The notes: a model not told the origin generated them from the sequence alone. A stretch of 44,703 nt of DNA from a virus (IMGVR_UViG_2718218308_000001); one strand, 5' to 3'. Shown: positions 1 to 41,395, numbered from the stretch's first letter. Translations and numbers: made by a program.

Positions 1-19
1 CTGTTTGATAAATATTAAA

Positions 20-1315
20 TTAATTTTTCATTGCTTCGTTATGGGGCATGGTTGGGGCAAACTCGCTTAACTGTGTATTTAACAAAGCTACCTGTGCATT
101 ATTGTTTTCAGACATCCATTTTCCGTATACCTGAAATACCATTTGCGCATCTGCATGGCCCATCTGGTTTGCTATAAATGCCGGGTTAGCACCAGCTGTC
201 AGCGACCAGCAGGCATAAGTATGTCTCGACTGATATGATTTTCGATGGCGGAGTCCGGCACGTTTTATCGCTGCGTCCCACATCTGCCTTATTGAGTCAA
301 CGGTAAAATGGTCACCATAATTTTTTACTCTCGCTGACACTTCAGGTTGAAAAACAAAGGTGCATTTTTGTTTTTCTGTTCTGCCATACTCTCTGAGGTG
401 AACATCAATGATATGCTCTTTGCTCAGTCTCGTTAATGTCATCTGACTCCGGAGAGCGTCGATTGCTGGCTTAATAAGATGAATGACCCGATTGGTTCCC
501 GCCTGTGTTTTTGGTACCGTGAAACGGTCTTTTGCTAAATTTCTCCTGATCATCATTGTTCCATTTTTCAGATCTATGTCCTCCCATCCAAGTGCACACA
601 GCTCACCAGGGCGAACGCCAGTATAAACAGAAACACACCATAAATTTTTGGCTTGCTGATTTCTGCACGCATCGATAAGACGGATGAATTCCTCCCGCGA
701 AAGAGGATCCGGAATGGTTCTTGATTCCTTTAATGGCGAGATCCCCTTAAACGGATTATCTGCCAGGTAACCGTTATCAACACCAAACTGGAACACGGCG
801 TTAAGATTTGTCATGTAATTATTTACAGTTACAGCCGATCTCCCTGGTTGTGTAACAATATAGTTACTTTTGGGGATCTGGTATCCAGTCAGTAGCTCTT
901 TACGAACCTCCAGTAATTTTTCTTTATTAATCGATGAGGCAAGATTTTTTTCACCGATTATGCTCAGGATATTTTTGATGACGGCACGGTATGTGTTGAG
1001 TGATGTTTTGGCGACTTCAGTTTCTTTCAGTGCCAGAAATTTTTCAGCCAGTTCTTTTATGGTTAAATCTTGTCGGGCCTCACCAAATTTTTCCAGATTG
1101 CGTGAGGAGGGAAACTGTTTTGCATAGTCGAAAACACCAGTTTTTATTGCGTAACAAACAGAGGAGCGTAGTTCACCTGCAACGCGCCTGTTTTTTGCTG
1201 TGTCAGGAACCCCCAGATTTTCCCTGACTCTTACGCCTTTATAAACAAACCAGATACGTAATTTCCCTCCATGGTTTTCCACGCCTGTCGGATATTTCAT
1301 TTCAACTTCTCTCAT
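20..1315 (-). CDS. Phage tyrosine integrase (site-specific recombinase)
   Basis: 431-aa ORF; C-terminal region (RHTYACW...GANPAFIANQMGH...VY) fits the tyrosine recombinase catalytic domain of IntR/IntS-type prophage integrases; sits at the prophage edge next to an excisionase-like gene. Family assignment from memory, not searched. Confidence 0.85.
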   Translation of the reverse strand: MREVEMKYPTGVENHGGKLRIWFVYKGVRVRENLGVPDTAKNRRVAGELRSSVCYAIKTGVFDYAKQFPSSRNLEKFGEARQDLTIKELAEKFLALKETEVAKTSLNTYRAVIKNILSIIGEKNLASSINKEKLLEVRKELLTGYQIPKSNYIVTQPGRSAVTVNNYMTNLNAVFQFGVDNGYLADNPFKGISPLKESRTIPDPLSREEFIRLIDACRNQQAKNLWCVSVYTGVRPGELCALGWEDIDLKNGTMMIRRNLAKDRFTVPKTQAGTNRVIHLIKPAIDALRSQMTLTRLSKEHIIDVHLREYGRTEKQKCTFVFQPEVSARVKNYGDHFTVDSIRQMWDAAIKRAGLRHRKSYQSRHTYACWSLTAGANPAFIANQMGHADAQMVFQVYGKWMSENNNAQVALLNTQLSEFAPTMPHNEAMKN

Positions 1316-1334
1316 TAGTTAGTGTGGCTTTTAG

Positions 1335-1586
1335 TCAAGTAAGATGACGTCTTGGTCTCGCTGATGCCTGGCGCTCAATCCAGCGATCAATTTCTTCCAG
1401 GTTGTAAAAGCATGGACTGTTATCCCATGGCATACCGTCATGAGCGACATGCTTATATTCCCTTCCTTCCATAAACGATTTTTCCCGGGCCTTTTTTAAC
1501 GTACCTTTTTTTATTCCTTTCAGCGCAATTAACTGCTCTTCGGATACCCATTTGCCGGGAGAGACAATCATGATTACTTCGCTCAT
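1335..1586 (-). CDS. Excisionase-like small DNA-binding protein
   Basis: 83-aa ORF directly upstream of and co-oriented with the integrase, the typical xis position. Called by position and size only. Confidence 0.55.
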   Translation of the reverse strand: MSEVIMIVSPGKWVSEEQLIALKGIKKGTLKKAREKSFMEGREYKHVAHDGMPWDNSPCFYNLEEIDRWIERQASARPRRHLT

Positions 1587-1658
1587 CGATTTCTTTATCT
1601 CTTACATCAGACGAGCGCCGGTTGCAGAATACCAGTCACAACCGGCGACAGTTGAACA

Positions 1659-3113
1659 TTAAGAATCAGCCTGACTCGGGATCAGTTTTTGCCAGATAAC
1701 TGAAACGTATTTTGCCTGGTAACGGGCGTCATCAAGTGCATTATGGCGCTCACCTTCGAATGGAATAGCCGTTCTGGCATCGAAGTCTATGGCTTTCCCC
1801 AGCTCAACGATTGTGCGTACATCGCGATCGTTGTAGTAACGCCACGGGCAGGGGATCCCCTGCCGTTCGTATGAACGGCGCAAAATCGTGTTGTCGAAGT
1901 TGGCTCCATTTCCCCAAACCTGAACAAAAAATTCACCGGAGTTTTCGTCGATAAATTCCCGTAATTGTAACAGTGCATCATCTAACGGGATTTCATCGGT
2001 CATAATGGCAGATTGCGCTTCGCGTGATTGCTTAAGCCACCATTTAATGGTGTCCCGATCAATGACTCCGCCAGCAGTTTCCAGATCGATAGTCTTACTA
2101 AATTCCGGTCCCATATCTCCGGTTTGCGGATCGAAAAATATTGCACCTATTGAGATGATCGGGGCATCAGGATTTTTTCCCATGGTTTCAAGGTCGATCA
2201 TTAGATGGTCACACGTCCTGCTGGTGGATGTGATTTCGTGATGACCGTTCACCTTAATTGAGTGATCTGCCGTCTCGCCAGTTTCATTATCGCTATTGTG
2301 ATGCTGATTGCCGCCAGTGTTCTCCTTGTGTGGATGTTCAGCGCCTTCCATTTCCTCCGGATCATCTTCCTGAACTTCAACCTGATACTCTTCATCGAAT
2401 GTTTCTTGGTATGTTGCGTCGCCCATCACCGCGCCACAATCAGGGCAGTTGCCGCCGCCGGTCTGACCGCAGGCGGTGCAGACTTTTTCCACTTCCTGTT
2501 GCGCCACTGGTTCAGGCTGTTTCGTTTCTGGCTCGTTTTGTAACGCATTTGTGCTGTTTTGTTCCGCTTTTTGGTAGTTCCGTTCCGATTCATGCTGGTT
2601 CTGGTTCACAGAATCGCGGGTCTGGATCCCCTTAACCCATTTCGGATCATTCGGGTCACTAATCCCTTCAACAAATTCACCACGTGATGCAGCAAGCAAC
2701 TTATCGGCGTCAGGCTGGCTGATATTGGCTGCCTGCATAATTTTGTTTACTTCGTCAGCGGTAACTTTTATCGGCTCTGGTTGTTCTGAATCTTCAGCGG
2801 TATCTACATTTTGCGGTAAGCCCGTGTATGTGCCATTTTTTCGGGCAAAATATTCTTCTTTTGTGATTTCAGTGGCGCCAGCAGCCAGTGCCTTATCCAG
2901 ACCAGAAAGTTTGTTTGCGCGACCGTATTTTTCTCCGTCCTTATCTGCGAAGAGGAAATAGAACGGCCCCTCACGCTCTACAGATGGTTCAGCTTCCGGC
3001 GCGGTTTCATTTTTTGGGATATCAGATACCTCAGTTTCCACTGCATCAGTTTGTGTTTCTGATGACTGGAGAACATCAACAGTGCCCAGGTCTGTTTCTT
3101 CATTCTCAAACAC
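1659..3113 (-). CDS. Putative phage exonuclease with C-terminal DEDD-type 3'-5' exonuclease domain; possibly 5'-truncated
   Basis: 484-aa ORF. C-terminal half has DnaQ-like motifs (MIDLETMG ... FDxxxL ... HNALDDA); N-terminal half is acidic and low-complexity with a CxxC...CxxC cluster. The ORF start lies 60 bp from the IS3 left end. Confidence 0.55.
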
Positions 3114-3238
3114 GCCCTTTGTCGTCAGGTATTCGCAGATATATTTGTTCAGTGCTATGGGATCTTTGTGAATTGATCTTACCCAGCAATAGTGGACACG
3201 CGGCTAAGTGAGTAAACTCTCAGTCAGAGGTGACTCAC

Positions 3239-3538
3239 ATGACAAAAACAGTATCAACCAGTAAAAAACCCCGTAAACAGCATTCGCCTGAATTTCGCAG
3301 TGAAGCCCTGAAGCTTGCTGAACGCATCGGTGTTACTGCCGCAGCCCGTGAACTCAGCCTGTATGAATCACAACTCTACAACTGGCGCAGTAAACAGCAA
3401 AATCAGCAGACGTCTTCTGAACGTGAACTGGAGATGTCTACCGAGATTGCACGTCTCAAACGCCAGCTGGCAGAACGGGATGAAGAGCTGGCTATCCTCC
3501 AAAAGGCCGCGACATACTTCGCGAAGCGCCTGAAATGA
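3239..3538 (+). CDS. insE: IS3 transposase OrfA (InsE)
   Basis: 99-aa product [32 protein letters not shown]... with helix-turn-helix region; overlaps orfB as in IS3-family elements. Confidence 0.9.
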
Positions 3539-4401
3539 AGTATGTCTTTATTGAAAAACATCAGGCTGAGTTCAGCATCAAAGCAATGTGCCGCGTGCTC
3601 CGGGTGGCCCGCAGCGGCTGGTATACGTGGTGTCAGCGGCGGACAAGGATAAGCACGCGTCAGCAGTTCCGCCAACACTGCGACAGCGTTGTCCTCGCGG
3701 CTTTTACCCGGTCAAAACAGCGTTACGGTGCCCCACGCCTGACGGATGAACTGCGTGCTCAGGGTTACCCCTTTAACGTAAAAACCGTGGCGGCAAGCCT
3801 GCGCCGTCAGGGACTGAGGGCAAAGGCCTCCCGGAAGTTCAGCCCGGTCAGCTACCGCGCACACGGCCTGCCTGTGTCAGAAAATCTGTTGGAGCAGGAT
3901 TTTTACGCCAGTGGCCCGAACCAGAAGTGGGCAGGAGACATCACGTACTTACGTACAGATGAAGGCTGGCTGTATCTGGCAGTGGTCATTGACCTGTGGT
4001 CACGTGCCGTTATTGGCTGGTCAATGTCGCCACGCATGACGGCGCAACTGGCCTGCGATGCCCTGCAGATGGCGCTGTGGCGGCGTAAGAGGCCCCGGAA
4101 CGTTATCGTTCACACGGACCGTGGAGGCCAGTACTGTTCAGCAGATTATCAGGCGCAACTGAAGCGGCATAATCTGCGTGGAAGTATGAGCGCAAAAGGT
4201 TGCTGCTACGATAATGCCTGCGTGGAAAGCTTCTTTCATTCGCTGAAAGTGGAATGTATCCATGGAGAACACTTTATCAGCCGGGAAATAATGCGGGCAA
4301 CGGTGTTTAATTATATCGAATGTGATTACAATCGGTGGCGGCGGCACAGTTGGTGTGGCGGCCTCAGTCCGGAACAATTTGAAAACAAGAACCTCGCTTA
4401 G
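3535..4401 (+). CDS. insF: IS3 transposase OrfB (InsF), DDE integrase-like catalytic domain
   Basis: 288-aa ORF overlapping orfA in another frame; contains DDE-type residues (WAGDITY...HTDRGGQY...[10 protein letters not shown]). Confidence 0.9.
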
Positions 4402-4431
4402 GCCTGTGTCCATATTACGTGGGTAGGATCA

Positions 4432-4686
4432 CGTGGAAGTATGAGCGCAAAAGGTTGCTGCTACGATAATGCCTGCGTGGAAAGCTTCTTTCATTCGCTG
4501 AAAGTGGAATGTATCCATGGAGAACACTTTATCAGCCGGGAAATAATGCGGGCAACGGTGTTTAATTATATCGAATGTGATTACAATCGGTGGCGGCGGC
4601 ACAGTTGGTGTGGCGGCCTCAGTCCGGAACAATTTGAAAACAAGAACCTCGCTTAGGCCTGTGTCCATATTACGTGGGTAGGATCA
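4432..4686 (+). mobile_element. Partial IS3: tandem duplicate of the 3'-terminal 255 bp
   Basis: 4432..4686 repeats 4177..4431 (the insF 3' end plus right terminal repeat) immediately after the complete element. ORFs 4441..4656 (+) and 4429..4668 (-) are artefacts of this duplication. Confidence 0.85.
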
Positions 4687-4846
4687 CACCTCATGCCCCA
4701 GATGTTTTTTGTTTTCAGGAGAAAACTATATCGCAGAACTACGAACTAAACTTATGTCATAACTCATGCAAAAAACTCTTCGGCTAAACATTAAAAAAAT
4801 CTTATAATGCGAATCATATTTTGTTACATGTTCAGGAGCGCAAAGG

Positions 4847-5887
4847 ATGTCCCAGTACGACAAAGCCACGCAAACAGCAGGTTTAGTACGCATAACTAAT
4901 CAATTAGAGTCTATATACGGAACTTTTATTGATATGAAAGATATTAATTCCGTAGGAGAGCATAGGAAAGAAACTCTAATTACACGCTGTGTAGCTGCGC
5001 ATGCAATCAGCTTGTATGGTGATGAACCAGACCCTGAGTTAGCTGCTAATGCTGTCTGCGATGGAAAAGATGATGGCGGGATAGATGCAGTTTATGTTAA
5101 TAAAAATTCGAGAAAGATAGTAATAGTTCAGTCAAAATATATTAAAAATGGCGACGGTTCTATAACCACAAGAGAATTCGGAAGATTCAAAGACGCATGC
5201 GCAAAAGTAATAGCCAGCGACTTTACAACATTTAACGAAAGGTTTTTAAGAAACAAAGACTCCATAATTGAAGCAATCTCAGGATTTACATATAAATGTA
5301 TATGTGTATTTATATATACAGGGGTTCATGAGCCAAGCGAAGAAGTAAAATCAGACATAGAGTTTTGGGAAAAGGTTCAGAATCGGTCTCTATTATTTAA
5401 AGATATAGAGAATAGAGATGAGTATTCAGTGCTATTCGAGCCGGCAGGTATACAAGTGATAATGGATGGTCTTTCTAATGATCGATCAAAATCTATAAAT
5501 GTTAGCAATGTTCACCTTGAAAGTTATGGAGAGATAGCAGAACCTTATAAAGCAATATACGGAACAATATCCGCAAGGATCCTATACGACTGGTGGGAAA
5601 AGTACAAGTACTCTCTGTTCGAGAAAAATATAAGAAGTGTCCTCGGTAATTCATCCATAAACTCTGGGATAAAGAAAACATTAAGTGAAAAGCCGGAGAA
5701 TTTTTGGTACTATAACAATGGGATAACTGCTGTATATAGTGATGTAGAAGAAAGCATGATCAACTTAAGTACAAGCAGGAAGTACGGGCTATTTAGTTTT
5801 AAAAGTCTGAGTATAATAAATGGAGCTCAAACTGTAAGCACTATTGGTGAAGTGTTCAACTCTTTACCCGAAGAAATAAAGATCTAA
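4847..5887 (+). CDS. Candidate abortive-infection/defence protein, N-terminal part (PD-(D/E)xK nuclease-like motif; AIPR-like)
   Basis: 346-aa ORF in an AT-rich island. Motif GIDAVYVN...KIVIVQSKY fits a PD-(D/E)xK D...(E/Q)xK signature; a later NGAQT motif resembles AIPR-family Abi proteins as I recall them. Shine-Dalgarno-like AGGAG upstream. Family assignment unverified. Confidence 0.5.
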   Translation: MSQYDKATQTAGLVRITNQLESIYGTFIDMKDINSVGEHRKETLITRCVAAHAISLYGDEPDPELAANAVCDGKDDGGIDAVYVNKNSRKIVIVQSKYIKNGDGSITTREFGRFKDACAKVIASDFTTFNERFLRNKDSIIEAISGFTYKCICVFIYTGVHEPSEEVKSDIEFWEKVQNRSLLFKDIENRDEYSVLFEPAGIQVIMDGLSNDRSKSINVSNVHLESYGEIAEPYKAIYGTISARILYDWWEKYKYSLFEKNIRSVLGNSSINSGIKKTLSEKPENFWYYNNGITAVYSDVEESMINLSTSRKYGLFSFKSLSIINGAQTVSTIGEVFNSLPEEIKI

Positions 5888-5892
5888 TCAAG

Positions 5893-6621
5893 GTGAGCAT
5901 TAGATTTATCAGTGCAGCAAAAGAAGATTTTTTAACCTCTGTCACTAAATTCAACAATACACAAAACAGGGTTACTGGAAGAGATTTCTCATCACAGAGG
6001 CCCGAGCAACAAAGAATACAAAGAGAAATAAACTTTATTGGCGGATATAGCTACAAACTACTCAGGCAAGAAGACTCCAGCCAGACAGGTGGTAATACCA
6101 TTGATATTGATGATGCTTTAAACGCATTAGTGTGTGCCTCTAAAGATGAAACATTGATATCTTCCTTAAAACTAAATAGAGGACGTTTTTTTGAAAGCTG
6201 GGGAGGTCTTTATGAAAAAGTATTCCCAGCTGAAAATGGTCCTACCGGTTTAGATATAATAAATAAAGTAAATGCTTATAGATTAGCAAATGATATATTG
6301 CAAGAAAGTATAGTTAAACTACTATCAGTAGATATGGAAAATCAGAAGCAGATTCATCAAATAATGATTCATGGAAATTATGTTTTAATATCCATACTCA
6401 TGAATAAAATAGAAGTTTCCTCTGTGGAGAATCACATCTTCTCTTATAGCCGAAACGTTTCACTGGAGGAATGTATAGAGCTGGCTTCTGATACTTATAA
6501 TCACATACAGGAAGTCTTCCCCAATAGTTATATAGCAAGATTCTTCCAGAACAGAGAAAAAGTATTAAATATTATTAATCATCTACTAGGTAAAGAGCAG
6601 ATCATCGAATTGCAAGAGTAA
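5893..6621 (+). CDS. Second ORF of the candidate defence locus (C-terminal part of a frameshifted gene, or a separate partner gene)
   Basis: 242-aa ORF with GTG start 5 nt after the upstream stop, in a different frame; that frame is open from 5851, so one indel in 5851..5887 would fuse the two ORFs into about 590 aa. Followed by a strong terminator. Confidence 0.45.
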   Translation: MSIRFISAAKEDFLTSVTKFNNTQNRVTGRDFSSQRPEQQRIQREINFIGGYSYKLLRQEDSSQTGGNTIDIDDALNALVCASKDETLISSLKLNRGRFFESWGGLYEKVFPAENGPTGLDIINKVNAYRLANDILQESIVKLLSVDMENQKQIHQIMIHGNYVLISILMNKIEVSSVENHIFSYSRNVSLEECIELASDTYNHIQEVFPNSYIARFFQNREKVLNIINHLLGKEQIIELQE

Positions 6622-6623
6622 AA

Positions 6624-6657
6624 GTAAGAGCCACCTGCGGGTGGCTCTTACTTATTT
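6624..6657 (+). terminator. Rho-independent terminator after the candidate defence locus
   Basis: 12-bp perfect stem GTAAGAGCCACC / GGTGGCTCTTAC with TGCG loop, followed by TTATTT. Confidence 0.7.
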
Positions 6658-7299
6658 GACTCTACCATATGCTCGCATTTGCCATAACATATGTTGCGTA
6701 CGCTCAGAAATACGTGGAGGGCGTTTCTGGTCTAAAATCGTCAAGACACTCCATCATATATTCAGGAAATTGCTAATAATCGTGTAGGTGAATACTGCTT
6801 AAAATTCATATATATGAAATTGAACCTGTTGGCTTGCGTCGGACTTTGCGTATTAAAAGAAGTGCTGGTGGTGACTAGTGGTTGAGCTCCATTTCCACAG
6901 AAAAATCAGAGAAACCATACCCAATAGTTGTATTGAATCACGGACGAGACAGCCTCATATTTATCAGGACTGGTGTACGTCCAATACAGGAGGTTGTGGT
7001 GCTGGTTCTCAAATGTGCGCTGGCTATTACGGCTGTAATGGCGATTTATTGTCTTGCTATTGTTCTTATGGATCGCCTTTCTGACTGATTTCATATTGGC
7101 GAGGTAAAGGTAGTTAAGTAGAATGGCTGCGGGTGCTTGAGGCTATCTGCCTCGGGCATGAACACCAAAGGCAGATAGAGAAAAGCCCCAGTTAACATTA
7201 CGCGTCCTGCAAGACGCTTAACATTAATCTGAGGCCAATTTCATGCTAGACACATGTAGGTTAGCCTCTTACGTGCCGGAAGGCAAGGAGAAGCAGGCT

Positions 7300-7455
7300 A
7301 TGAAGCAGCAAAAGGCGATGTTAATCGCCCTGATCGTCATCTGTTTAACCGTCATAGTGACGGCACTGGTAACGAGGAAAGACCTCTGCGAGGTACGAAT
7401 CCGAACCGGCCAGACGGAGGTCGCTGTCTTCACAGCTTACGAACCTGAGGAGTAA
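7300..7455 (+). CDS. hokD: Hok/Gef-family membrane toxin (type I toxin)
   Basis: 51-aa product MKQQKAMLIALIVICLTVIVTALVTRKDLCEVRIRTGQTEVAVFTAYEPEE matches HokD/RelF of the K-12 Qin prophage as I recall it; AGGAGA ribosome-binding site upstream. The track ORF from 7243 is an in-frame upstream extension. Confidence 0.85.
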   Translation: MKQQKAMLIALIVICLTVIVTALVTRKDLCEVRIRTGQTEVAVFTAYEPEE

Positions 7456-7525
7456 GAGACCCGGCGAGGGAGAAATCCCTCGCCACCTCTGATGTGGCAG
7501 GCATCCTCAACGCACCCGCACTTAA

Positions 7526-7550
7526 CCCGCTTCGGCGGGTTTTTGTTTTT
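7526..7550 (+). terminator. Rho-independent terminator downstream of hok
   Basis: Hairpin CCCGC-TTCG-GCGGG followed by TTTTTGTTTTT; a second hairpin (GGCGAGGG / CCCTCGCC, 7463..7484) lies just upstream. Confidence 0.6.
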
Positions 7551-7671
7551 ATTTTCAACGCGTTTGAAGTTCTGGACGGTGCCGGAATAGAATCAAAAAT
7601 ACTTAAGTAGCGCGCAGGGATAAGAGGGATGGTCCCTTAAAGGGGAGAGCTAATTATCCGGAAGGATTCTG

Positions 7672-7923
7672 ATGATGAACATCGAAGAACTGCGTAAAAT
7701 TTTTTGTGAAGATGGCCTCTATGCTGTGTGCGTTGAAAATGGAAATCTTGTTAGTCATTACCGCATTATGTGTTTGCGAAAGAATGGGGCTGCGTTAATT
7801 AATTTTGTGGATGGTCGAGTGACAGACGGATTTATCTTGCGCGAAGGTGAGTTTGTCACTTCATTACAGGCACTGAAAGAGATCGGAATAAAAGCAGGCT
7901 TTTCAGCTTTTGCAGAAGAATAA
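7672..7923 (+). CDS. rem: Small prophage protein, Rem-like
   Basis: 83-aa ORF in the same position relative to hok and the DUF968 gene as rem in Qin. Called by size and synteny only. Confidence 0.45.
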   Translation: MMNIEELRKIFCEDGLYAVCVENGNLVSHYRIMCLRKNGAALINFVDGRVTDGFILREGEFVTSLQALKEIGIKAGFSAFAEE

Positions 7924-7989
7924 ACTCATCTACAATCTTGCGCGGGGCTGAACTCCCGCTGAGTAACACCGTGCCACCGGAGAAAACCG

Positions 7990-8268
7990 ATGGCACGCAA
8001 CGTAAAATATTACAATTCTGATAATTCGCCCGTTCTTGTCTGCACGCACGAGCGGTATTCTCACGCATTCAAGTCTGAATGGTTCCAACACCCTCCATGC
8101 ACTGAAGAGCAGGCTGAATGGATAATTCAGTGTTACCGCAGGCGCGGATACGAGGTTAAGAAAGCCCTTAGTCTCGACTACCGTCACTGGATAATCTCAG
8201 TCAGATTGCCTTACTCCGAACGCCCACCGCGTCCGTCCCGTACATTCCAGCAACGCATCTGGAGGTAA
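7990..8268 (+). CDS. Hypothetical protein
   Basis: 92-aa ORF between the rem-like and DUF968 genes, co-oriented; no recognisable motif. Confidence 0.3.
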   Translation: MARNVKYYNSDNSPVLVCTHERYSHAFKSEWFQHPPCTEEQAEWIIQCYRRRGYEVKKALSLDYRHWIISVRLPYSERPPRPSRTFQQRIWR

Positions 8269-8269
8269 C

Positions 8270-9319
8270 GTGCGGGTATTACTTCGACCTGTTCTGGTAC
8301 CGGAACTTGGGCTGGTGGTCGTTAAGCCGGGCCGTGAATCCATGCCGGTATTCCACAATACCCGGGTACTGGTGGAGCCGGAACCGAAAAGCATGCGTAA
8401 TCTGCCGTCCGGGGTCGTTCCTGCCGTTCGCCAGCCGCTGGTGGAAGACAAAACATTGCTGCCGTTTTTCAGTAACGCACGGGTAATTCGTGCTGCTGGT
8501 GGTGCTGGTGCATTGTCTGACTGGCTGTTGCGCCATATTAAATCCTGCCAGTGGCCACACGGCGATTATCATCACAGCGAAACCGTTATTCACCGATATG
8601 GTACCGGCGCAATGGTGTTGTGCTGGCACTGCGACAACCAGCTGCGTGACCAGACATCCGAATCACTCGAGCAACTTGCTCATCAAAACCTGTCAGCATG
8701 GATGATTGACGTCATCGGTCACGCAATAAGCGGTACGCAGGAGCGTGAATTATCTCTGGCTGAATTATCCTGGTGGGCGGTCCGCAATCAGCTGGCGGAC
8801 GCGCTACCGGAAGCGGTATTACGTCGCTCGCTGGGATTACCAGCGGAAAAAATCTGCTCGGTGTACCGCGAAAGCGACATCGTACCGGGAGAGCAGACCG
8901 CCACCAGCATATTGAAACAGCGCACAAAAAATCTTGCACCGTTGCCTCACGCCCACCAGCAACAAAACCCATCACAGGAAAAGACGGTGGTAAGCATCAC
9001 CGTTGATCCAGAGTCTCCGGAATCTTTCATGAAGCTGCCTAAACGTCACCGGTGGGTTAAGGAGAAATACACACGCTGGGTTAAGACACAGCCGTGTGCT
9101 TGCTGCGGTATGCCAGCCGACGATCCGCATCATCTGATTGGTCACGGGCAGGGCGGAATGGGAACCAAAGCACATGATCTCTTTGTTTTGCCTTTGTGCA
9201 GAAAGCATCACGACGAGTTGCATACGGATACCGTGGCATTTGAAGAGAAGTATGGCTCCCAACTGGAGCTGATTTTTCGATTTATCGATCGCGCGCTGGC
9301 AATTGGTGTGCTGGCCTAA
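8270..9319 (+). CDS. ydfU: DUF968-family prophage protein with HNH-like zinc-finger nuclease motif (YdfU-like)
   Basis: 349-aa ORF; C-terminus [21 protein letters not shown]...CRKHHDELH has Cys/His spacing typical of HNH modules; directly upstream of the Q-like gene as in Qin. Confidence 0.65.
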
Positions 9320-9321
9320 TT

Positions 9322-9714
9322 TTGTGGAGTAAGTTGATGCGTGATATTCAGATGGTTCTTGAGCGTTGGGGGGCATGGGCGGCTAATAATCATGAAGATG
9401 TGACCTGGTCGTCCATTGCCGCCGGTTTTAAGGGATTAATTCCTTCAAAAGTAAGATCTCGTCCGCAATGCTGTGACGATGACGCGATGATCATTTGTGA
9501 ATGTATGGCTCGCCTGAAAAAAAACAACAGCGATTTACATGATTTATTGGTGGACTATTATGTCGGCGGCATGACTTTTATGGCGCTTGCACGTAAGCAT
9601 GGGCGATCTGATTGTTGGGTTGGCAGGATGCTCCAGAAAGCTGAGGGCGTAGTGGAGGGCATGCTGATGGTGTTGGATCTCCGATTGGAGATGGATGCTG
9701 ATTGTTCGAAATAA
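9322..9714 (+). CDS. quuQ: Late-gene antiterminator Q-like protein
   Basis: 130-aa ORF immediately after the DUF968 gene and upstream of a short region ending in a terminator (PR'/tR' arrangement); Cys-rich central region. Confidence 0.65.
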
Positions 9715-9814
9715 TTAAAGGAAAAGTTGCTGTCTGATTTTCATTAGTCTAACATTTTAAATGTTGGAATCGCAACGTAGTTATTATCATATAACAGCTT
9801 ATTTCCTGATTTAG

Positions 9815-9841
9815 CCAGCCTCCCCAAAGGCTGGTTTTTTT
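9815..9841 (+). terminator. Putative late-operon terminator tR' (target of Q antitermination)
   Basis: Hairpin CCAGCC-TCCCCAAA-GGCTGG followed by TTTTTTT, about 100 bp downstream of the Q-like gene. Confidence 0.5.
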
Positions 9842-9869
9842 CTAATAAGTATCATTTCGGGTGGGGATT

Positions 9870-10394
9870 TTATTGTTTAACCCATAATAGTTCATTGACA
9901 TTGAATCCCAACTTTTGAGCGGTACGCACATAGTCTGCTTTTACATTATCTGGAATAGTTTGGGTCCTTGCCAGAATCCATAGGTATTCTCTGTTCGGAC
10001 CACTGACAAGAGCATACTTATACTCATCATCCAGTTTGATTACATTATAGCCACCATAGAAGGGGCCAAAAAACGAAACTTTCAACGCTGCAGTTTTAGT
10101 ATCTCCAGTAAAGTATGCTTTACCTTCGCTCTCGCTCCATTTGTTTTTCGTTGGATCGTATCCACGGTTAAGTACGCGAATCCCTCCGTCGTTCCGTTTT
10201 TCATAAGTAGCGCTGACCTGTTCCAGACCACGTTCGAACCAGTTCTCGAGGCGAGCTATTTCATACCATTTTCCGAGGTAGCGGTTGGCGTCAAAATTTG
10301 TAATCGGCTGCACACCTTTAGGTTGTGTCGGGGCCTTACATGCTATAAGAGTGAAAGAGAGTGCAATGCCAGTCAACACAGGCCATAACTTCAT
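9870..10394 (-). CDS. Outer-membrane lipocalin, Blc-like lipoprotein (cargo gene)
   Basis: 174-aa ORF with lipoprotein signal and lipobox (LIAC); lipocalin motifs GKWYEIAR and SFFGPFYGGYNVI; strong resemblance to E. coli Blc. Opposite strand to the phage late operon. Confidence 0.85.
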   Translation of the reverse strand: MKLWPVLTGIALSFTLIACKAPTQPKGVQPITNFDANRYLGKWYEIARLENWFERGLEQVSATYEKRNDGGIRVLNRGYDPTKNKWSESEGKAYFTGDTKTAALKVSFFGPFYGGYNVIKLDDEYKYALVSGPNREYLWILARTQTIPDNVKADYVRTAQKLGFNVNELLWVKQ

Positions 10395-10586
10395 AATAAA
10401 TCCTGTACTTTTGATAGTTGAGAGTAAGTATGAAAGATAGATGAGTACGACCGATCACTTAAAGAACTTTCCTACTATATTAGGAATAGTCAATAACAGA
10501 AAAATTGTCAGTGATGAAGCCAGAAAGGCAATTTAGTCCGTGCACTACAAAGTTTATGTGTTAATGAATTAGTCAAGGGGGAGGAA

Positions 10587-11546
10587 ATGATAAAAAAACC
10601 TGTGATTGGGATCAGCGGTTGTTTGGGCGGTTCTGCTGTTCGTTTTGATGGTGGTCACAAAAGAGATGACTTTTTAATGGACAAATTAGTGGAATGGGTA
10701 ACATTCAGACCAGTATGTCCGGAAATGGCTATAGGGCTGCCAGTTCCGCGTCCTGCTCTACGACTTGTGCGCTCGAAGCAAGGAAATATACGGATGTGTT
10801 TCAGCCACGACCAGAATGAGGATGTGACAGAGAGAATGACAGAGTTTAGTCGTTCTTATATGGACAAATTAAAGGATGTATCGGGGTTTGTGGTTTGTGC
10901 TAAATCTCCCAGCTGTGGCATGGAGCGCGTGCGTGTCTATGATGAAAATGGTAATCGAGGTCGTAAAGATGGAGTGGGACTATTTACGAGCACTTTGATG
11001 GAAAAGTTTTCCTGGCTACCGGTTGAAGAGGATGGGCGATTACATGATCCAGTGCTTCGTGAGAATTTTATTGAAAGAGTTTTTGCTTTGCATGAGCTCA
11101 ATCACCTTTACAAGGAGAAATTATCAAGAAGAGAGTTATTAGCTTTTCATAGTCGTTATAAGCTTCAGTTGTTGGCGCATAGCCAGGCAGGCTATAAAGA
11201 TATGGGACCATTTGTGGCTGCAATACACGAGTGGGCGGACCTTGAATCATACTTTGAGGTGTATCGTGATAATCTGATGGCGATTCTCAGAAAACCAGCA
11301 TCACGTAAAAATCACACGAATGTGCTGATGCATATACAGGGGTATTTTAGTAATTACTTAAGTACACGCCAGCGTAAAGAGTTGAGCGAGGTTATACTTA
11401 ACTATCGCTTTGGCACATTGCCTCTTCTTGCGCCGTTGACTCTGCTGAAGCATTATCTGGGTGAGTATCCTAATGATTACTTGCTTACACAGAATTACTT
11501 CGATCCCTATCCGGAAGAACTGGCTCTAAGACTGATGGTGAATTAA
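10587..11546 (+). CDS. YbgA-like protein (DUF523 Cys-rich domain plus DUF1722 domain) (cargo gene)
   Basis: 319-aa ORF; N-terminal conserved cysteines (GISGCLGG, CPEM, SPSCG) typical of DUF523/TudS-like Fe-S proteins; GGAGG ribosome-binding site. Domain assignment from memory. Confidence 0.6.
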   Translation: MIKKPVIGISGCLGGSAVRFDGGHKRDDFLMDKLVEWVTFRPVCPEMAIGLPVPRPALRLVRSKQGNIRMCFSHDQNEDVTERMTEFSRSYMDKLKDVSGFVVCAKSPSCGMERVRVYDENGNRGRKDGVGLFTSTLMEKFSWLPVEEDGRLHDPVLRENFIERVFALHELNHLYKEKLSRRELLAFHSRYKLQLLAHSQAGYKDMGPFVAAIHEWADLESYFEVYRDNLMAILRKPASRKNHTNVLMHIQGYFSNYLSTRQRKELSEVILNYRFGTLPLLAPLTLLKHYLGEYPNDYLLTQNYFDPYPEELALRLMVN

Positions 11547-11943
11547 CTGTATGCGATATCATCTGAAAGTGATGAGTTCCTGTATGCAGGATATTTACAA
11601 TCGTAAAAACTACGCTATGATGCTCATAGTGTCAGTTTTTATAAAAATCCTGTTCACGCTAAAGAAAACATTGAGATGCAATTTAATGTTGGTAAACATA
11701 CCAGCCCCAAAAGATTTTATTCAATCTGTTTTTATATGAAGATATTTCAAGTGAATATAAAGAGCATATAATATTATTATTGCACGCAGCTATTATAATA
11801 TAACAGATTAGTTTAATGATTTGTTTTTTGTGAGTTAAACACATGGTTTTATAGTTGTGATGCAATGAGATTTTCCTTATTGTTGAACTGGCGAATATTG
11901 ATTTTCCACCTATACTTACCTAGTGTAACCCCAATGATATCAG

Positions 11944-12666
11944 GTGGATAATATGTCATACATATGTTCTATCATTTTGGTGTTGAACTCGTTTGGTGTC
12001 CGAATTGGTAAAGAAGATATTTTGTTTAAAAAAGGAAATGCTGTCCTCATTGAATACAATTTAAAAGATCTTTTTTCGTCAAATACAGATCATCTAATGA
12101 TCGTAGATGTTGAGGAGAAAACAGTTAATGATTTCTTTAAAAACTACACACTCTCACCTTTTTCTGTAAGAAGGTTTTATCCGTCATACTTGATAGTAGA
12201 ATGTGAAGATTTTTCATTGTTAAAGAACTTGGTTGCATGCTTGAATTGTGATAGCAAAACCGTGGATGTAGTTAGAAATCAAATATCACTTGCATGTCTT
12301 GCTGTCTTATCTTCAGAGAAAATAGTGCAAAGTTTTTTGTTCGGAAGTCTTAATAGCTTAGGTTGTAAAGTTAAGGCTATTATTCACTCGGATATCTCAG
12401 CGTCATGGAGACTTTGTGATATATCTTCAAGATTATATATGAGCGAGAGTTTGTTAAAAAGAAAATTAAAAGACGAAGGATTATCGTTTAGTAAATTAAT
12501 TCTTGAAGAACGAATGATGATGGCGCAAAGATTATTGATCTACAGTAACCATACTGTCGGCAAGGTGGCGGGAATATGCGGGTATGACAATGCATCATAT
12601 TTTGTAAGTGTTTTTAGAAGATATTTTGGTGTGCCTCCGCACCAATATTTATCAAGATTTTCTTAG
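11944..12666 (+). CDS. AraC-family transcriptional regulator, AppY/EnvY-like (cargo gene)
   Basis: 240-aa ORF in very AT-rich DNA; C-terminal AraC-type helix-turn-helix (GYDNASYFVSVFRRYFGVPPHQY) resembling the prophage-borne regulator AppY. Confidence 0.75.
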   Translation: MDNMSYICSIILVLNSFGVRIGKEDILFKKGNAVLIEYNLKDLFSSNTDHLMIVDVEEKTVNDFFKNYTLSPFSVRRFYPSYLIVECEDFSLLKNLVACLNCDSKTVDVVRNQISLACLAVLSSEKIVQSFLFGSLNSLGCKVKAIIHSDISASWRLCDISSRLYMSESLLKRKLKDEGLSFSKLILEERMMMAQRLLIYSNHTVGKVAGICGYDNASYFVSVFRRYFGVPPHQYLSRFS

Positions 12667-12856
12667 AAGATATGATGTGATGGCATTTTATAAAGTTATT
12701 TTTTGAAGTGTAAGATTATACGATATTTTTAGCTACGCCAGAATAATTGCTGGCGTTTTTCTTTTTGAATAGATGTTCGGGCCTTACGCTAATGTAACTT
12801 CTTTCCTTCTTCGAACCAAACCGTGTACACCATCCGTTATCTGCGGAGGTGAGGCT

Positions 12857-13072
12857 ATGAAATCCATGGATAAGTTAACAACGGGCATCGCCTACAGCAC
12901 CTCTGCAGGCAGTGCTGGCTACTGGTTTTTACAGTTGCTCGATAAAGTCACGCCCTCACAGTGGGCGGCAATAGGTGTATTGGGTAGTCTGGTATTTGGC
13001 ATGCTGACGTATCTGACAAATCTTTATTTCAAGATTAAAGAAGACAGGCGTAAGGCTGCGAGAGGAGAGTAA
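12857..13072 (+). CDS. essQ: Holin, class II (phage 21 S-like)
   Basis: 71-aa product [71 protein letters not shown] with two transmembrane segments and a charged C-terminus; GGAGGTGAGG ribosome-binding site. Confidence 0.8.
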
Positions 13073-13076
13073 TCCA

Positions 13077-13271
13077 ATGACTCAAGACTATGAACTGGTT
13101 GTGAAAGGAGTCCGTAATTTTGAGAATAAAGTTACGGTAACTGTAGCCTTACAGGACAAAGAACGCTTTGACGGTGAAATTTTTGACCTGGATGTCGCCA
13201 TGGACCGTGTTGAAGGAGCTGCGCTGGAGTTTTATGAGGCAGCAGCCAGAAGGAGCGTCCGGCAAGTCTGA
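13077..13271 (+). pseudogene. ydfR: ydfR-like lysis-cassette gene interrupted by IS3
   Basis: 64-aa ORF whose stop codon TGA is formed by the first bases of IS3; the same frame resumes after the IS for a further 38 codons (14527..14643), restoring an ORF of about 102 aa. Confidence 0.7.
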
Positions 13272-13333
13272 TCTTACCCAGCAATAGTGGACACGCGGCT
13301 AAGTGAGTAAACTCTCAGTCAGAGGTGACTCAC

Positions 13334-13633
13334 ATGACAAAAACAGTATCAACCAGTAAAAAACCCCGTAAACAGCATTCGCCTGAATTTCGCAGTGAAG
13401 CCCTGAAGCTTGCTGAACGCATCGGTGTTACTGCCGCAGCCCGTGAACTCAGCCTGTATGAATCACAACTCTACAACTGGCGCAGTAAACAGCAAAATCA
13501 GCAGACGTCTTCTGAACGTGAACTGGAGATGTCTACCGAGATTGCACGTCTCAAACGCCAGCTGGCAGAACGGGATGAAGAGCTGGCTATCCTCCAAAAG
13601 GCCGCGACATACTTCGCGAAGCGCCTGAAATGA
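13334..13633 (+). CDS. insE: IS3 transposase OrfA (InsE), copy 2
   Basis: Same protein as copy 1. Confidence 0.9.
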
Positions 13634-14496
13634 AGTATGTCTTTATTGAAAAACATCAGGCTGAGTTCAGCATCAAAGCAATGTGCCGCGTGCTCCGGGT
13701 GGCCCGCAGCGGCTGGTATACGTGGTGTCAGCGGCGGACAAGGATAAGCACGCGTCAGCAGTTCCGCCAACACTGCGACAGCGTTGTCCTCGCGGCTTTT
13801 ACCCGGTCAAAACAGCGTTACGGTGCCCCACGCCTGACGGATGAACTGCGTGCTCAGGGTTACCCCTTTAACGTAAAAACCGTGGCGGCAAGCCTGCGCC
13901 GTCAGGGACTGAGGGCAAAGGCCTCCCGGAAGTTCAGCCCGGTCAGCTACCGCGCACACGGCCTGCCTGTGTCAGAAAATCTGTTGGAGCAGGATTTTTA
14001 CGCCAGTGGCCCGAACCAGAAGTGGGCAGGAGACATCACGTACTTACGTACAGATGAAGGCTGGCTGTATCTGGCAGTGGTCATTGACCTGTGGTCACGT
14101 GCCGTTATTGGCTGGTCAATGTCGCCACGCATGACGGCGCAACTGGCCTGCGATGCCCTGCAGATGGCGCTGTGGCGGCGTAAGAGGCCCCGGAACGTTA
14201 TCGTTCACACGGACCGTGGAGGCCAGTACTGTTCAGCAGATTATCAGGCGCAACTGAAGCGGCATAATCTGCGTGGAAGTATGAGCGCAAAAGGTTGCTG
14301 CTACGATAATGCCTGCGTGGAAAGCTTCTTTCATTCGCTGAAAGTGGAATGTATCCATGGAGAACACTTTATCAGCCGGGAAATAATGCGGGCAACGGTG
14401 TTTAATTATATCGAATGTGATTACAATCGGTGGCGGCGGCACAGTTGGTGTGGCGGCCTCAGTCCGGAACAATTTGAAAACAAGAACCTCGCTTAG
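13630..14496 (+). CDS. insF: IS3 transposase OrfB (InsF), copy 2
   Basis: Same protein as copy 1. Confidence 0.9.
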
Positions 14497-14645
14497 GCCT
14501 GTGTCCATATTACGTGGGTAGGATCAGTCTTCCTGGAAGTAGCAGAAAAATTGTCAGAAAAAGTTGAGTCTTATCTGCAGCATCAGTACTCCTTTAAGAT
14601 TGAAAATCCTGCCAATAAGCACGAGCGTCCTCATCATAAATATAT

Positions 14646-15673
<1,028 letters not shown>

Positions 15674-16036
15674 GGTAATATTAAATCGGAACATTTACAT
15701 CGCGGAATGTAAAATTTAAATAAAAAGGACTCTTCCATGAGCCAAAATTCCTGAAATCTTAAGGGTAAGATAAAAGGTCTTAATCAGAATGACACGTTAT
15801 TATTAATAAATAAAGCTATTCTTTCATTGCTGTGTTTTTCTTTACAAAAGTAATCCTTGCTATGGGTGGTTAATCATGCGTTAATGGTGTTCTGGTTTGT
15901 TACAAATTTATCTGAAGCAGTCATTGTTATAATTTTATTATTTGTACCTCTTGAGATTTCCTTGTTGGTTTTTCTCTCTGATATTTTTTTTCGGACCATT
16001 CTGCCCAAGGGCTAATTTCTTCAAAAGGTAATAATT

Positions 16037-16249
16037 ATGTCTAACAAAATGACTGGTTTAGTGAAATGGTTTAACCCTGAAAAAGGTTTTGGTTTCATCA
16101 CGCCGAAAGATGGCAGCAAAGATGTGTTTGTCCATTTCTCAGCAATTCAGAGCAACGATTTCAAAACATTAACTGAGAATCAGGAAGTTGAATTTGGTAT
16201 TGAGAACGGACCTAAAGGTCCTGCCGCTGTTCATGTAGTGGCGCTTTGA
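16037..16249 (+). CDS. cspI: Cold-shock protein, CspA family
   Basis: 70-aa product with RNA-binding motifs [12 protein letters not shown] and VFVHFSAI; preceded by a long AT-rich leader typical of csp genes. Confidence 0.9.
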
Positions 16250-16456
16250 GGTAGACAATATTACAAACCATATTCACTTTAGATGCCCGTGTTGTCATGG
16301 TTCCCAGTATAGAACATCATCTTTTGATGTTTCTGACATGAATCCTTTCGGGGCAAAATGTATCTTTTGTAAATCAATGATGATTACATTTGATAATATT
16401 TCACAATACTTAAATGCCAGCCGTCTGTCGTTGGATTTAAAAAAGTGAAAATGAAG

Positions 16457-16476
16457 GCTCCTTCGGGAGCTTTTTT
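16457..16476 (+). terminator. Rho-independent terminator
   Basis: Hairpin GCTCC-TTCG-GGAGC followed by TTTTTT. Confidence 0.55.
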
Positions 16477-16478
16477 GC

Positions 16479-16751
16479 TTGGTATCTATTCGATGGATAC
16501 TCACATACTACGGTAACATCATGAAAAAAATCATAGTTTTTTTTAACTCTGAACCTGCAGTGGTAGTGCCAGCGATGACTGGAGTTAACACCATCATGCG
16601 TGAATATCCAAATGGTGAAAAAACACACCTTACTGTAATGGCCGCAGGGTTTCCATCTCTGACCGGAGATCATAAAGTCATTTATGTAGCCGCGGATCGA
16701 CATGTTACTTCAGAAGAAATTCTGGAAGCAGCAATAAGGCTCTTGAGTTGA
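16479..16751 (+). CDS. Hypothetical small protein (possibly ynfN-like)
   Basis: ORF with TTG start at 16479 or ATG at 16521 (MKKIIVFF...); position matches ynfN in the Qin layout; no motif recognised. Confidence 0.35.
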   Translation: MVSIRWILTYYGNIMKKIIVFFNSEPAVVVPAMTGVNTIMREYPNGEKTHLTVMAAGFPSLTGDHKVIYVAADRHVTSEEILEAAIRLLS

Positions 16752-16919
16752 TTTGATGCTATTGTATTGATAATTCAGGAAAATTTTCTTTGTCTGTTTG
16801 TGTAAAATTTAGACTATCGTATGTTGATTATTGCGATGTTTCATCTTATCTTTTACACGTTTGCACCATATAATCGACTTACTGTGTAACTGGAAAGTCA
16901 TAACAGACTAAAAGAGGAA

Positions 16920-17096
16920 ATGATGAATATTGAAAACTTAAAAACAAAAGCAGAAGCAGATATTTCTGAATATATAACAAAAAAAATTATTGAACTTAAG
17001 AAAAAGACCGGGAAAGAAGTTACCAGTATTCAGTTTACCGCACGGGAAAAAATGACGGGTCTTGAAAGCTATGATGTCAAGATTAATTTAATCTGA
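16920..17096 (+). CDS. gnsB: GnsA/GnsB-family small protein
   Basis: 58-aa ORF found by manual translation (below the track size cut-off): MMNIENLKTKAEADISEYITKKIIELKKKTGKEVTSIQFTAREKMTGLESYDVKINLI, close to GnsB as I recall it; AAGAGGAAA ribosome-binding site. Confidence 0.7.
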   Translation: MMNIENLKTKAEADISEYITKKIIELKKKTGKEVTSIQFTAREKMTGLESYDVKINLI

Positions 17097-18148: not shown

Positions 18149-18337
18149 GGGCGGCGACCTCGCGGGTTTTCGCTATTTATGAAAATTTTCCGGTTTAAGG
18201 CATTTCCGTTCTTCTTCATCGTAACTTAATGTTTTTATTTAAAATACCCCCTGAAAAGAAAGGAAACGACAGGTGCTGAAAACGAGCTTTTGGGCCTCTG
18301 TCGTTTCCTTTCTCTGTTTTTGGCCGTGGAATGAACA
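18149..18337 (+). other. cos: Lambda-type cos site: cosN cohesive-end sequence GGGCGGCGACCT followed by the cosB terminase-binding region
   Basis: GGGCGGCGACCTCGCGGGTTTTCGCTATTTATGAAAATTTTCCGG... at 18149 onward closely matches the lambda cos region as I recall it, and lies directly upstream of Nu1. Confidence 0.8.
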
Positions 18338-40820: not shown

Positions 40821-41395
40821 TGGCATTCAGAATGAGTGAACAACCACGGACCATAAAAATTTATAATCTGCTGGCCGGAACTAATGAATTTATTGGTGAA
40901 GGTGACGCATATATTCCGCCTCATACAGGTCTGCCAGCAAACAGTATCGATATTGCACCGCCAGATATTCCGGCAGGCTTCGTGGCTGTTTTCAACAGTG
41001 ATGAGGCATCGTGGCATCTCGTTGAAGATCATCGGGGTAAAACGGTTTATGACGTGGCTTCCGGCGACGCGTTATTTATTTCTGAACTCGGTCCGTTACC
41101 GGAAAATGTTACCTGGTTATCGCCGGGAGGGGAATATCAGAAGTGGAACGGCACAGCCTGGGTGAAGGATACGGAAGCAGAAAAACTGTTCCGGATCCGG
41201 GAGGCGGAAGAAACAAAAAACAGCCTGATGCAGGTAGCCAGTGAGCATATTGCGCCGCTTCAGGATGCTGCAGATCTGGAAATTGCAACGGAGGAAGAAA
41301 TCTCGTTGCTGGAAGCATGGAAAAAGTATCGGGTATTGCTGAACCGTGTTGATACGTCAACTGAACAGGATATTGAATGGCCAGCACTGCCGTAG
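40820..41395 (+). CDS. tfa: Tail fibre assembly protein Tfa
   Basis: 191-aa ORF immediately after stf with overlapping stop/start. Confidence 0.85.

Follow-up and report, generated by a model that had tools for sequence, protein, structure and literature searches.

The window analysed here, the whole stretch IMGVR_UViG_2718218308_000001 of 44,703 nucleotides, is assigned on sequence grounds to the Qin family of lambdoid prophages at the rspB/ydfJ site of Escherichia coli. Its genes follow the Qin-family order int-xis-exo ... hok-rem-ydfU-Q ... S-ydfR-R-Rz-cspI-gnsB ... Nu1 ... tfa-pin, and two copies of the insertion sequence (IS) IS3 bracket about 10 kb of its left part. The position of ydfJ puts the right end of the prophage at ~42.8-43.4 kb. 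The rspB flank lies beyond the window and is placed there by analogy with 99.9%-identical relatives, where the integrase adjoins rspB. The features at and around the two IS3 copies are as follows, with IRR standing for the right inverted repeat and ORF for open reading frame.

1659-3173, minus strand: exonuclease gene reduced to its 3' two-thirds (codons 320-823 of 823), with IS3 copy A cutting off the 5' end and the promoter side
3174-4431, plus strand: IS3 copy A, 1,258 bp, no target-site duplication, at the left edge of a 5.59-kb deletion
4432-4686, plus strand: orphan IS3 3' fragment, 255 bp, IS positions 1004-1258 including the IRR, abutting the IRR of copy A
4847-6621, plus strand: AIPR/AbiU-like abortive-infection gene, in ORFs 4847-5887 (346 amino acids, aa) and 5893-6621 (242 aa)
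12857-13072, plus strand: holin gene essD (P21-type S), with Pfam Phage_holin_2_1 and a full-length tblastn match to the holin of phage PhiR42_1
13077-14646, plus strand: ydfR (DUF1327), split by copy B into codons 1-64 (13077-13268) and codons 61-103 (14518-14646), two pieces in tblastn
13269-14526, plus strand: IS3 copy B, a simple insertion with the 3-bp target duplication GTC
14646-15673, plus strand: lysozyme gene rrrQ and spanin gene rzpQ, 100% identical to PhiR42_1 R and RzpQ, outside the IS3 bracket

In a self-BLAST of the window, the two full IS3 copies are 1,258 bp each, 100% identical and on the same strand (3174-4431 and 13269-14526), with 10,095 bp from start to start. An earlier note on this DNA had described them as identical and co-oriented, and its coordinates prove exact. 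The length and the termini are those of the IS3 family (~1,258 bp, with imperfect terminal inverted repeats of ~39 bp, 5'-TG...CA-3'). The element begins with TGATCTTACCC... at one end and closes with ...GGGTAGGATCA at the other; the left inverted repeat (IRL) reads TGATCTTACCCAGC... and the IRR, as its reverse complement, TGATCCTACCCACG.... Both ORFs are intact in each copy. In copy A, orfA (3230-3538) overlaps orfB (3535-4401), the C-terminus of OrfB matches rve_2/rve_3, and a programmed -1 frameshift is predicted to give OrfAB, a DDE (rve) transposase. Each copy is 99.8% identical to RefSeq elements labelled 'IS3-like element IS3 family transposase, programmed frameshift'. The fragment at 4432-4686, a feature absent from the earlier note, is 100% identical to 4177-4431 and 14272-14526, and its 71-aa ORF matches the C-terminus of the rve_2/rve_3 integrase core. 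The perfect identity among the two copies and the fragment suggests that IS3 transposition was recent and local.

IS-free relatives of the bracketed region were found by megablast of window positions 3000-14700 against 5,426 complete E. coli genomes, and the best of them is LR-48 (NZ_AP027543, locus L001). The two sequences correspond in three blocks.

Window 1-3173: LR-48 L001 1002-4174, 99.9% identity
Window 4687-13268: LR-48 L001 9765-18349, 99.88% identity (6 substitutions and two 1-bp gaps)
Window 14527-17094: LR-48 L001 continuing, 97% identity

LR-48 L001 4175-9764 (5,590 bp) is without a counterpart in the window, and copy A together with the fragment occupies its place. The deletion endpoints coincide exactly with IS3 ends. 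This early segment occurs in 653 of the 5,426 genomes. In the LR-48 annotation its exonuclease/dic end comprises the 5' third of the 823-codon exonuclease gene (L001 2660-5131, with an internal stop in LR-48), ydfD and dicB, and small ORFs are also found, two of them hypothetical and one of the DUF1391 family. The regulators are a 135-aa helix-turn-helix (HTH) protein, a Cro/CI-family protein (DicC in strain YZ_2_1) and a YdaT-family protein ('cII'); the remainder encodes a 321-aa hypothetical protein and a DUF977 protein. PHROGs places the 135-aa protein in transcriptional repressor families, as cI/DicA-like, and identifies the 321-aa protein as an O-like replication initiation protein (phrog_391, E = 3e-91). 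Rfam finds the DicF RNA at L001 5776-5827 of LR-48 and none in the window.

Searches by tblastn with the repressor, Cro/DicC, YdaT/cII, O-like initiator, DUF977, DicB and YdfD proteins gave no match anywhere in the 44.7-kb window, and neither did PhiR42_1 cI, Cro, cII, O, LygF and methyltransferase. The sole match of the lost-region queries is the retained part of the exonuclease, residues 320-823, which stops exactly at 3173 and still carries a Pfam Rv2179c-like 3'-5' exonuclease domain and a PHROGs exonuclease assignment. Among the sizeable ORFs between the IS3 copies, Pfam and PHROGs detect no repressor, cro, N-like or replication families. The families present there are AIPR, Hok, Rem, a small PHROG of unknown function, DUF968/HNH, Q antiterminator, lipocalin Blc, YbgA, an AraC-type regulator, the P21-type holin and a truncated DUF1327. 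The earlier note had reported no cI/cro pair, no N-like antiterminator and no O/P-like replication genes in this interval; homology searches that could have revealed such genes have now been run by tblastn, Pfam and PHROGs, and all are negative. A functional temperate lambdoid phage has a repressor with cro and a replication initiator. These are absent from the window, hence the prophage must be defective, as had been proposed. We also considered the AraC-type HTH gene (11944-12666) as a replacement repressor and rejected it, since it is AraC-family cargo that is also present in relatives keeping cI/cro.

The vacated space had been described as filled by IS3 and a defence locus. Instead, 5,590 bp are deleted, and the AIPR gene is in its native position: its start lies 160 bp past the right-hand end of the deletion, downstream of the former replication module, as in the IS-free relatives. 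The supposed locus is a single frameshifted gene. Its two pieces match Pfam PF10592 at 79.7 and 26.4 bits, PADLOC assigns AbiU, and PHROGs gives 'Abi alpha-like'. The frame is broken after codon 343, where an A8 run reads AAATAAA (~5871-5877) through a 1-bp loss and a substitution. The gene is intact, with 591 codons, in LR-48, YZ_2_1 and H2; in the window the PF10592 domain is present, though not as a single uninterrupted protein of ~590 aa. Judged by sequence, this AIPR/AbiU homologue is a pseudogene, though its break could be a homopolymer sequencing error. Directly after the AIPR stop lies a near-perfect palindrome of 32 nucleotides (nt) (6622-6653, 14-bp stem) with T-runs close by, which is likely a bidirectional terminator.

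The triplets flanking copy A and its fragment differ (AAT to the left, CAC to the right), so no target duplication is found. Because there is no target duplication and a 255-bp IS3 3' fragment abuts the element, we regard copy A as a rearrangement scar. The junction between copy A and the fragment has no match in the 5,426 genomes, as searched with a 48-bp query for which a junction-spanning 28-mer was required, and no exact-pattern match in the JGI metagenomes. We note that a 240-bp query over this junction is uninformative: its two halves are present in any normal IS3 and are joined by the search tool, which gave 3,574 'hits'. The outer junctions of copy A, left and right, are likewise both missing from the 5,426 genomes; the left one has no exact match in the GTDB species representatives, and the right one none in the JGI metagenomes. 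With no IS3 junction found in the complete E. coli genomes, the exact configuration appears to be private to one strain.

Such a unique arrangement may also be read as an assembly artefact of repeat resolution, which would produce both the full IS3 with its 255-bp tail and the identical copies 10 kb apart. This explanation is in keeping with the 100% identity of all three IS3 pieces, with the uniqueness of the IS3/IS3-fragment junction among the collections searched, and with the AIPR frameshift in a homopolymer, a typical place for sequencing errors. However, the deletion endpoints are exactly the IS3 ends, as in real IS-mediated events, and a misassembly would not make a precise junction from the IRR to an internal IS position without other inconsistencies. 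In addition, the AIPR change is a substitution as well as a 1-bp loss, and copy B is bordered by a clean 3-bp duplication, the relatives having an unbroken sequence at this site. We therefore consider an artefact unlikely.

Copy B is flanked by GTC at 13266-13268 and at 14527-14529, and the site is single-copy and uninterrupted in LR-48. Since this 3-bp direct repeat stands on both sides, copy B is a simple insertion. It lies in ydfR, where the 5' piece retains a Pfam DUF1327 match covering positions 1-64 of 93, and it parts the holin from the lysozyme, the spanin and the virion genes within the late transcription unit. The exact copy B junction has no match in the 5,426 genomes (48-bp query). 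A 240-bp query over it (13149-13388) matched 13 genomes, and these were rejected: the eight listed all match in two pieces over 423 bp, with IS3 ~180 bp off. Among these eight of the 13 (e.g. NZ_CP019005), the IS3 is in the same orientation in the ydfR/lysozyme region, which hints that this stretch is a recurrent IS3 target.

Two identical and co-oriented full IS3 copies, with orfA/orfB and ends intact, might suggest a composite transposon, namely an 11.35-kb IS3-flanked segment that arrived as a unit with the defence gene, hok/sok, Q and the cargo genes and is still mobile; in principle the IRL of copy A and the IRR of copy B are usable together. Against this, the outer flanks AAT and GTC share no 3-bp duplication, and copy B has its own GTC pair. 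The interior (4687-13268) is collinear with and 99.9% identical to IS-free prophages at the same chromosomal site, so the bracketed segment is resident phage DNA and not imported. The junctions are also not found elsewhere in the E. coli genomes, the GTDB representatives or the JGI metagenomes. Neither a shared outer duplication nor a foreign interior is thus present, and we regard a composite transposon as extremely improbable. The earlier note had suggested that recombination between the copies could delete or mobilise the interval. Deletion remains plausible, with an experimental precedent of the same type in the CP4-6 prophage that is described below; mobilisation as a composite transposon does not agree with the unmatched flanks and the collinear interior.

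From these observations, we consider it very probable that a Qin-type prophage lost its repressor, replication and dicB/DicF genes through a 5.6-kb deletion tied to IS3, and that a second identical IS3 entered its lysis cassette. At least two IS3 elements would once have been present at the left site. In a first possible route, an IS3 would have inserted upstream of AIPR and a second IS3 into the first, near position 1004-1006; a further IS3 would have landed in the exonuclease gene, and this copy would then have recombined with the nested full one, deleting 5.59 kb along with the left portion of the disrupted IS3. The product of this route equals the observed sequence exactly. In a second route, an IS3 in the exonuclease gene would have had its IRR joined by transposase to a target within an IS3 lying downstream, with the same product. 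Either way, the early region would be lost, and what stays would be a full IS3 joined to a 3' fragment and lacking a target duplication, and we infer that the fragment junction is the footprint of a nested IS3-into-IS3 insertion or of an IS-end-mediated deletion. The repressor would have been lost together with dicB, DicF and ydfD, which it controls, so that the toxicity of repressor loss alone would be avoided.

As there is no pL/pR, repressor, Cro, cII-like activator or replication initiator, the prophage should be non-inducible and non-replicating. Its gene content and lambdoid biology indicate that it would not be induced, replicate, or express xis and Q by the normal cascade. At the same time, int, xis, Q, cos and all head and tail genes remain intact, and the holin, lysozyme and spanin are full length. 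These features would also suit an element that is not dead, being helper-dependent or domesticated, packaged or particle-making when a superinfecting phage supplies the early functions, or serving as a recombination reservoir. The 24 structural genes, cosN, int, xis, Q and the three full-length lysis proteins agree with this possibility, there is no repressor to block an incoming homologous phage, and recombinational rescue of genes from defective lambdoid prophages is established. However, a recent deletion would leave the late genes just as intact, and a recent date agrees with both the 100% identity of the IS3 copies and the 99.9% identity to relatives. The late operon is also broken by copy B between holin and lysozyme, and no sign of selection for this state is seen, the configuration being private to one genome. 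We think such helper-dependence very unlikely. A broader form of these proposals holds that the IS3 pair is an 11.35-kb translocatable unit, or that the repressor-less prophage is kept as a helper-dependent or particle-producing element. If true, IS3 would have turned a temperate phage into a new mobilisable or domesticated module with hok/sok, Q and cargo, and we give this only the slightest credence.

Several points weigh against a grounding of the prophage by IS3. No intermediate is found: none of the 5,426 genomes has IS3 at either deletion breakpoint, and the order and number of the events are our reconstruction. Non-inducibility is a prediction from gene content. An assembly error at identical repeats, especially at the junction of full copy and fragment, keeps a small probability. 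Further deletion between copies A and B may also be rare, because IS3 gave 10 new insertions and 0 recombination events in a mutation accumulation study of K-12 (PMC5009759). We still regard the IS3-tied deletion as by far the best account of the locus.

RecA-dependent deletion commonly acts on repeats of this kind, here two perfect direct repeats of 1,258 bp separated by 10.1 kb. Recombination between copies A and B could delete 10,095 bp as a routine and expected instability; the truncated exonuclease gene would be joined to the 3' part of ydfR through one IS3, with loss of the broken AIPR gene, hok/sok, rem, ydfU, Q, blc-ybgA-araC and the holin. No such derivative is present in the collections searched, as the junction of the exonuclease gene with IS3 is unmatched in the 5,426 genomes. 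In the CP4-6 prophage, an 11-12 kb deletion between two IS1A copies recurs, and new IS insertions are biased toward nearby sites (PMC5009759). The two cases share direct IS copies ~10 kb apart in a defective prophage, and local hopping would explain the nearby copies in both. They differ in that the element of CP4-6 is IS1A and its deletion was observed, whereas here the element is IS3, which showed little activity in the K-12 study, the deletion between A and B is only predicted, and a past event left an unusual scar of a full copy plus a fragment.

The remaining genes of the bracket and the rest of the prophage are listed below.

20-1315, minus strand: integrase, 431 aa, full length, with residues 1-431 99.8% identical to the PhiR42_1 integrase (tblastn)
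1335-1586, minus strand: excisionase, full length, 100% identical to PhiR42_1 Xis
7131-7455, plus strand: hokD/sok type I toxin-antitoxin (sok RNA 7131-7305, hokD 7300-7455)
7672-9714, plus strand: rem, a small hypothetical gene, ydfU (DUF968/HNH) and the Q antiterminator gene (Pfam DUF968, Phage_antitermQ; PHROGs)
9870-12666, mixed strands: cargo between Q and the lysis genes, namely blc lipocalin (minus), ybgA (plus) and an AraC-type regulator (plus)
18149-41395, plus strand: cosN (18149) and the head and tail module from Nu1 to Tfa, lambda-type, complete, every gene full length
43420-44703, plus strand: host gene ydfJ in a 5'-truncated form, the right chromosomal flank (from the ORF list), with pinQ and ydfK-like genes before it

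The hokD/sok locus is recognised by Rfam RF01794 (117 bits) and Pfam HOK_GEF, and its Hok is 100% identical to that of PhiR42_1. At 7243-7455, 70 open codons are in frame with the annotated 51-codon hokD, and relBE is absent upstream. In K-12 Qin, an ancestral hokD of ~70 codons was reportedly shortened by insertion of relBE (PMC6379469), and the 70-codon open frame without upstream relBE fits this remark. The block from rem to Q (7672-9714) is collinear with LR-48 at 99.9% identity. A terminator-like hairpin directly 3' of Q (9813-9836) resembles tR'. The cargo genes match Pfam Lipocalin_2 (blc), 2-thiour_desulf and DUF1722 (ybgA, 2-thiouracil desulfurase) and HTH_18/HTH_AraC; the cargo block (9715-12700) has a GC content of 38%, and the same genes are found in relatives retaining cI/cro. 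This block sits where Shiga toxin (Stx) phages carry their Stx genes.

The Qin-like backbone with a complete lambda-type head and tail module, described in the earlier note, is confirmed by the gene order, the ydfJ flank and full-length virion matches. All 24 of 24 PhiR42_1 virion proteins match the window full length, each in one high-scoring segment pair, as do Int, Xis, holin, lysozyme and RzpQ, and the cosN at 18149 is GGGCGGCGACCT, the sequence of lambda. Positions 16500-41400 match strain N9 at 99.2% identity along all 24.9 kb, and sequenced phages from ECOR strains at 96-97%; 80% or more of this region occurs in ~2,100 of the 5,426 E. coli genomes. The module had been taken as a sign of a mosaic element. 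PhiR42_1 has the same layout, and with so many genomes carrying the module, this view is not upheld; a foreign lambda-type module was rejected in favour of one that is the family's own, given the same architecture in PhiR42_1. On the right, the order pinQ-ydfK-ynfT-ydfJ' is shared with N9 and H2. A scan for tRNA genes in the window found none. Two further features lie in the tail fibre genes: a full-length Rfam match to IS009 (RF02111, 221 bits) at 41163-41361, close to the pin invertase in the 3'-terminal part of the tail fibre assembly gene, and a direct repeat of 107 nt, its units 77-81% identical and spaced 132 nt apart, at 39172-39410 inside the side tail fibre gene, which is probably a repeated structural motif.

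The type of event described here is well known and belongs to ordinary prophage decay, and it leaves current understanding unchallenged. Its main value is for annotation, as it gives a base-by-base view of how an IS element makes a complete Qin-type lambdoid phage cryptic. Scoring this prophage as inducible, or listing its AIPR gene among active defences, would be a mistake, and the stretch bracketed by the IS3 pair is liable to lose a further 10.1 kb by deletion. The loss in one step of the repressor and its toxic targets (dicB, DicF, ydfD) fits the harm expected from loss of the repressor alone.

IS-driven erosion of Qin-type prophages is a common fate that differs by strain. PEC148 and many of the top matches have IS3 directly upstream of hokD and have lost the entire left arm and part of rspB. 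In VG12A2 (L009 16958-18120), IS3 sits within the O-like replication gene and IS1 within int; in 23CRST007, IS1 stands in place of dicB-to-flxA and IS3 between hokD and rem; and N9 has IS1, ISEsa1 and IS3 in the left arm. H2 (L008 37774-39171) retains the early region and has lost portal to tfa. In a survey of 189 strains, prophages at the Qin site measured between 11 and 97 kb (PMC6379469).

The closest relatives, the Qin-site prophages of LR-48, H2 and YZ_2_1, share AIPR, hok, Q, the cargo and the lysis genes with the window, at 99.9% identity over 1-3173 and 4687-13268 and 97% to 17.1 kb. They differ in keeping the 5.59-kb early region and an intact AIPR gene, in having no IS3 at the window sites, and in a late module of another type (DUF1441 and large terminase), which is partly deleted in H2. 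After gnsB, LR-48 and H2 depart from the window, with which they have the left arm in common, and carry a different terminase/portal module, so ordinary lambdoid module exchange is visible here.

PhiR42_1 (PV340562, 48.7 kb) shows the plan of the family in full; its status as a live, plaque-forming phage rests on the GenBank record (complete genome, host ECOR13), and our literature search on PhiR phages gave irrelevant matches only. Its early plan runs int, xis, exonuclease, ydfD, cI, Cro/DicC, cII/YdaT, O, LygF ... relBE, hok, rem, ydfU, Q, and its late plan S, ydfR, R, Rz, cspI, ynfN, gnsB ... Nu1, A, W, B, C, D, E, FI, FII, followed by Z, U, V, G, T, H, M, L, K, I, J, lom, stf, tfa, pin. 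The window shares this architecture, with 83-100% identity for Int, Xis, exonuclease, Hok, Rem, YdfU, the lysis proteins and all virion proteins (83% for J). PhiR42_1 differs in keeping cI, Cro, cII/YdaT, O and LygF/DUF977, all absent from the window, in its nin/Q region (relBE, 250-aa Q), and in having no IS3.

K-12 Qin is itself a deleted form that has lost the head and tail module. It shares with the window the rspB/ydfJ site and ydfJ' at the right flank, the genes hokD/sok, rem, ydfU, essD, ydfR, rrrQ, rzpQ, cspI, ynfN and gnsB, and further a ydfO-like gene, nohA/Nu1, tfaQ and pinQ. The window carries AIPR, a short Q and the blc-ybgA-araC cargo where K-12 Qin has relBE, a ydfT-type Q and cspB/F. 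We take K-12 Qin to retain dicA-dicC-dicB-DicF and to have lost nearly all head and tail genes. The window is thus the converse, with the early region gone and the virion module complete, and as the two are mirror images, a side-by-side comparison helps to reconstruct the ancestral phage.

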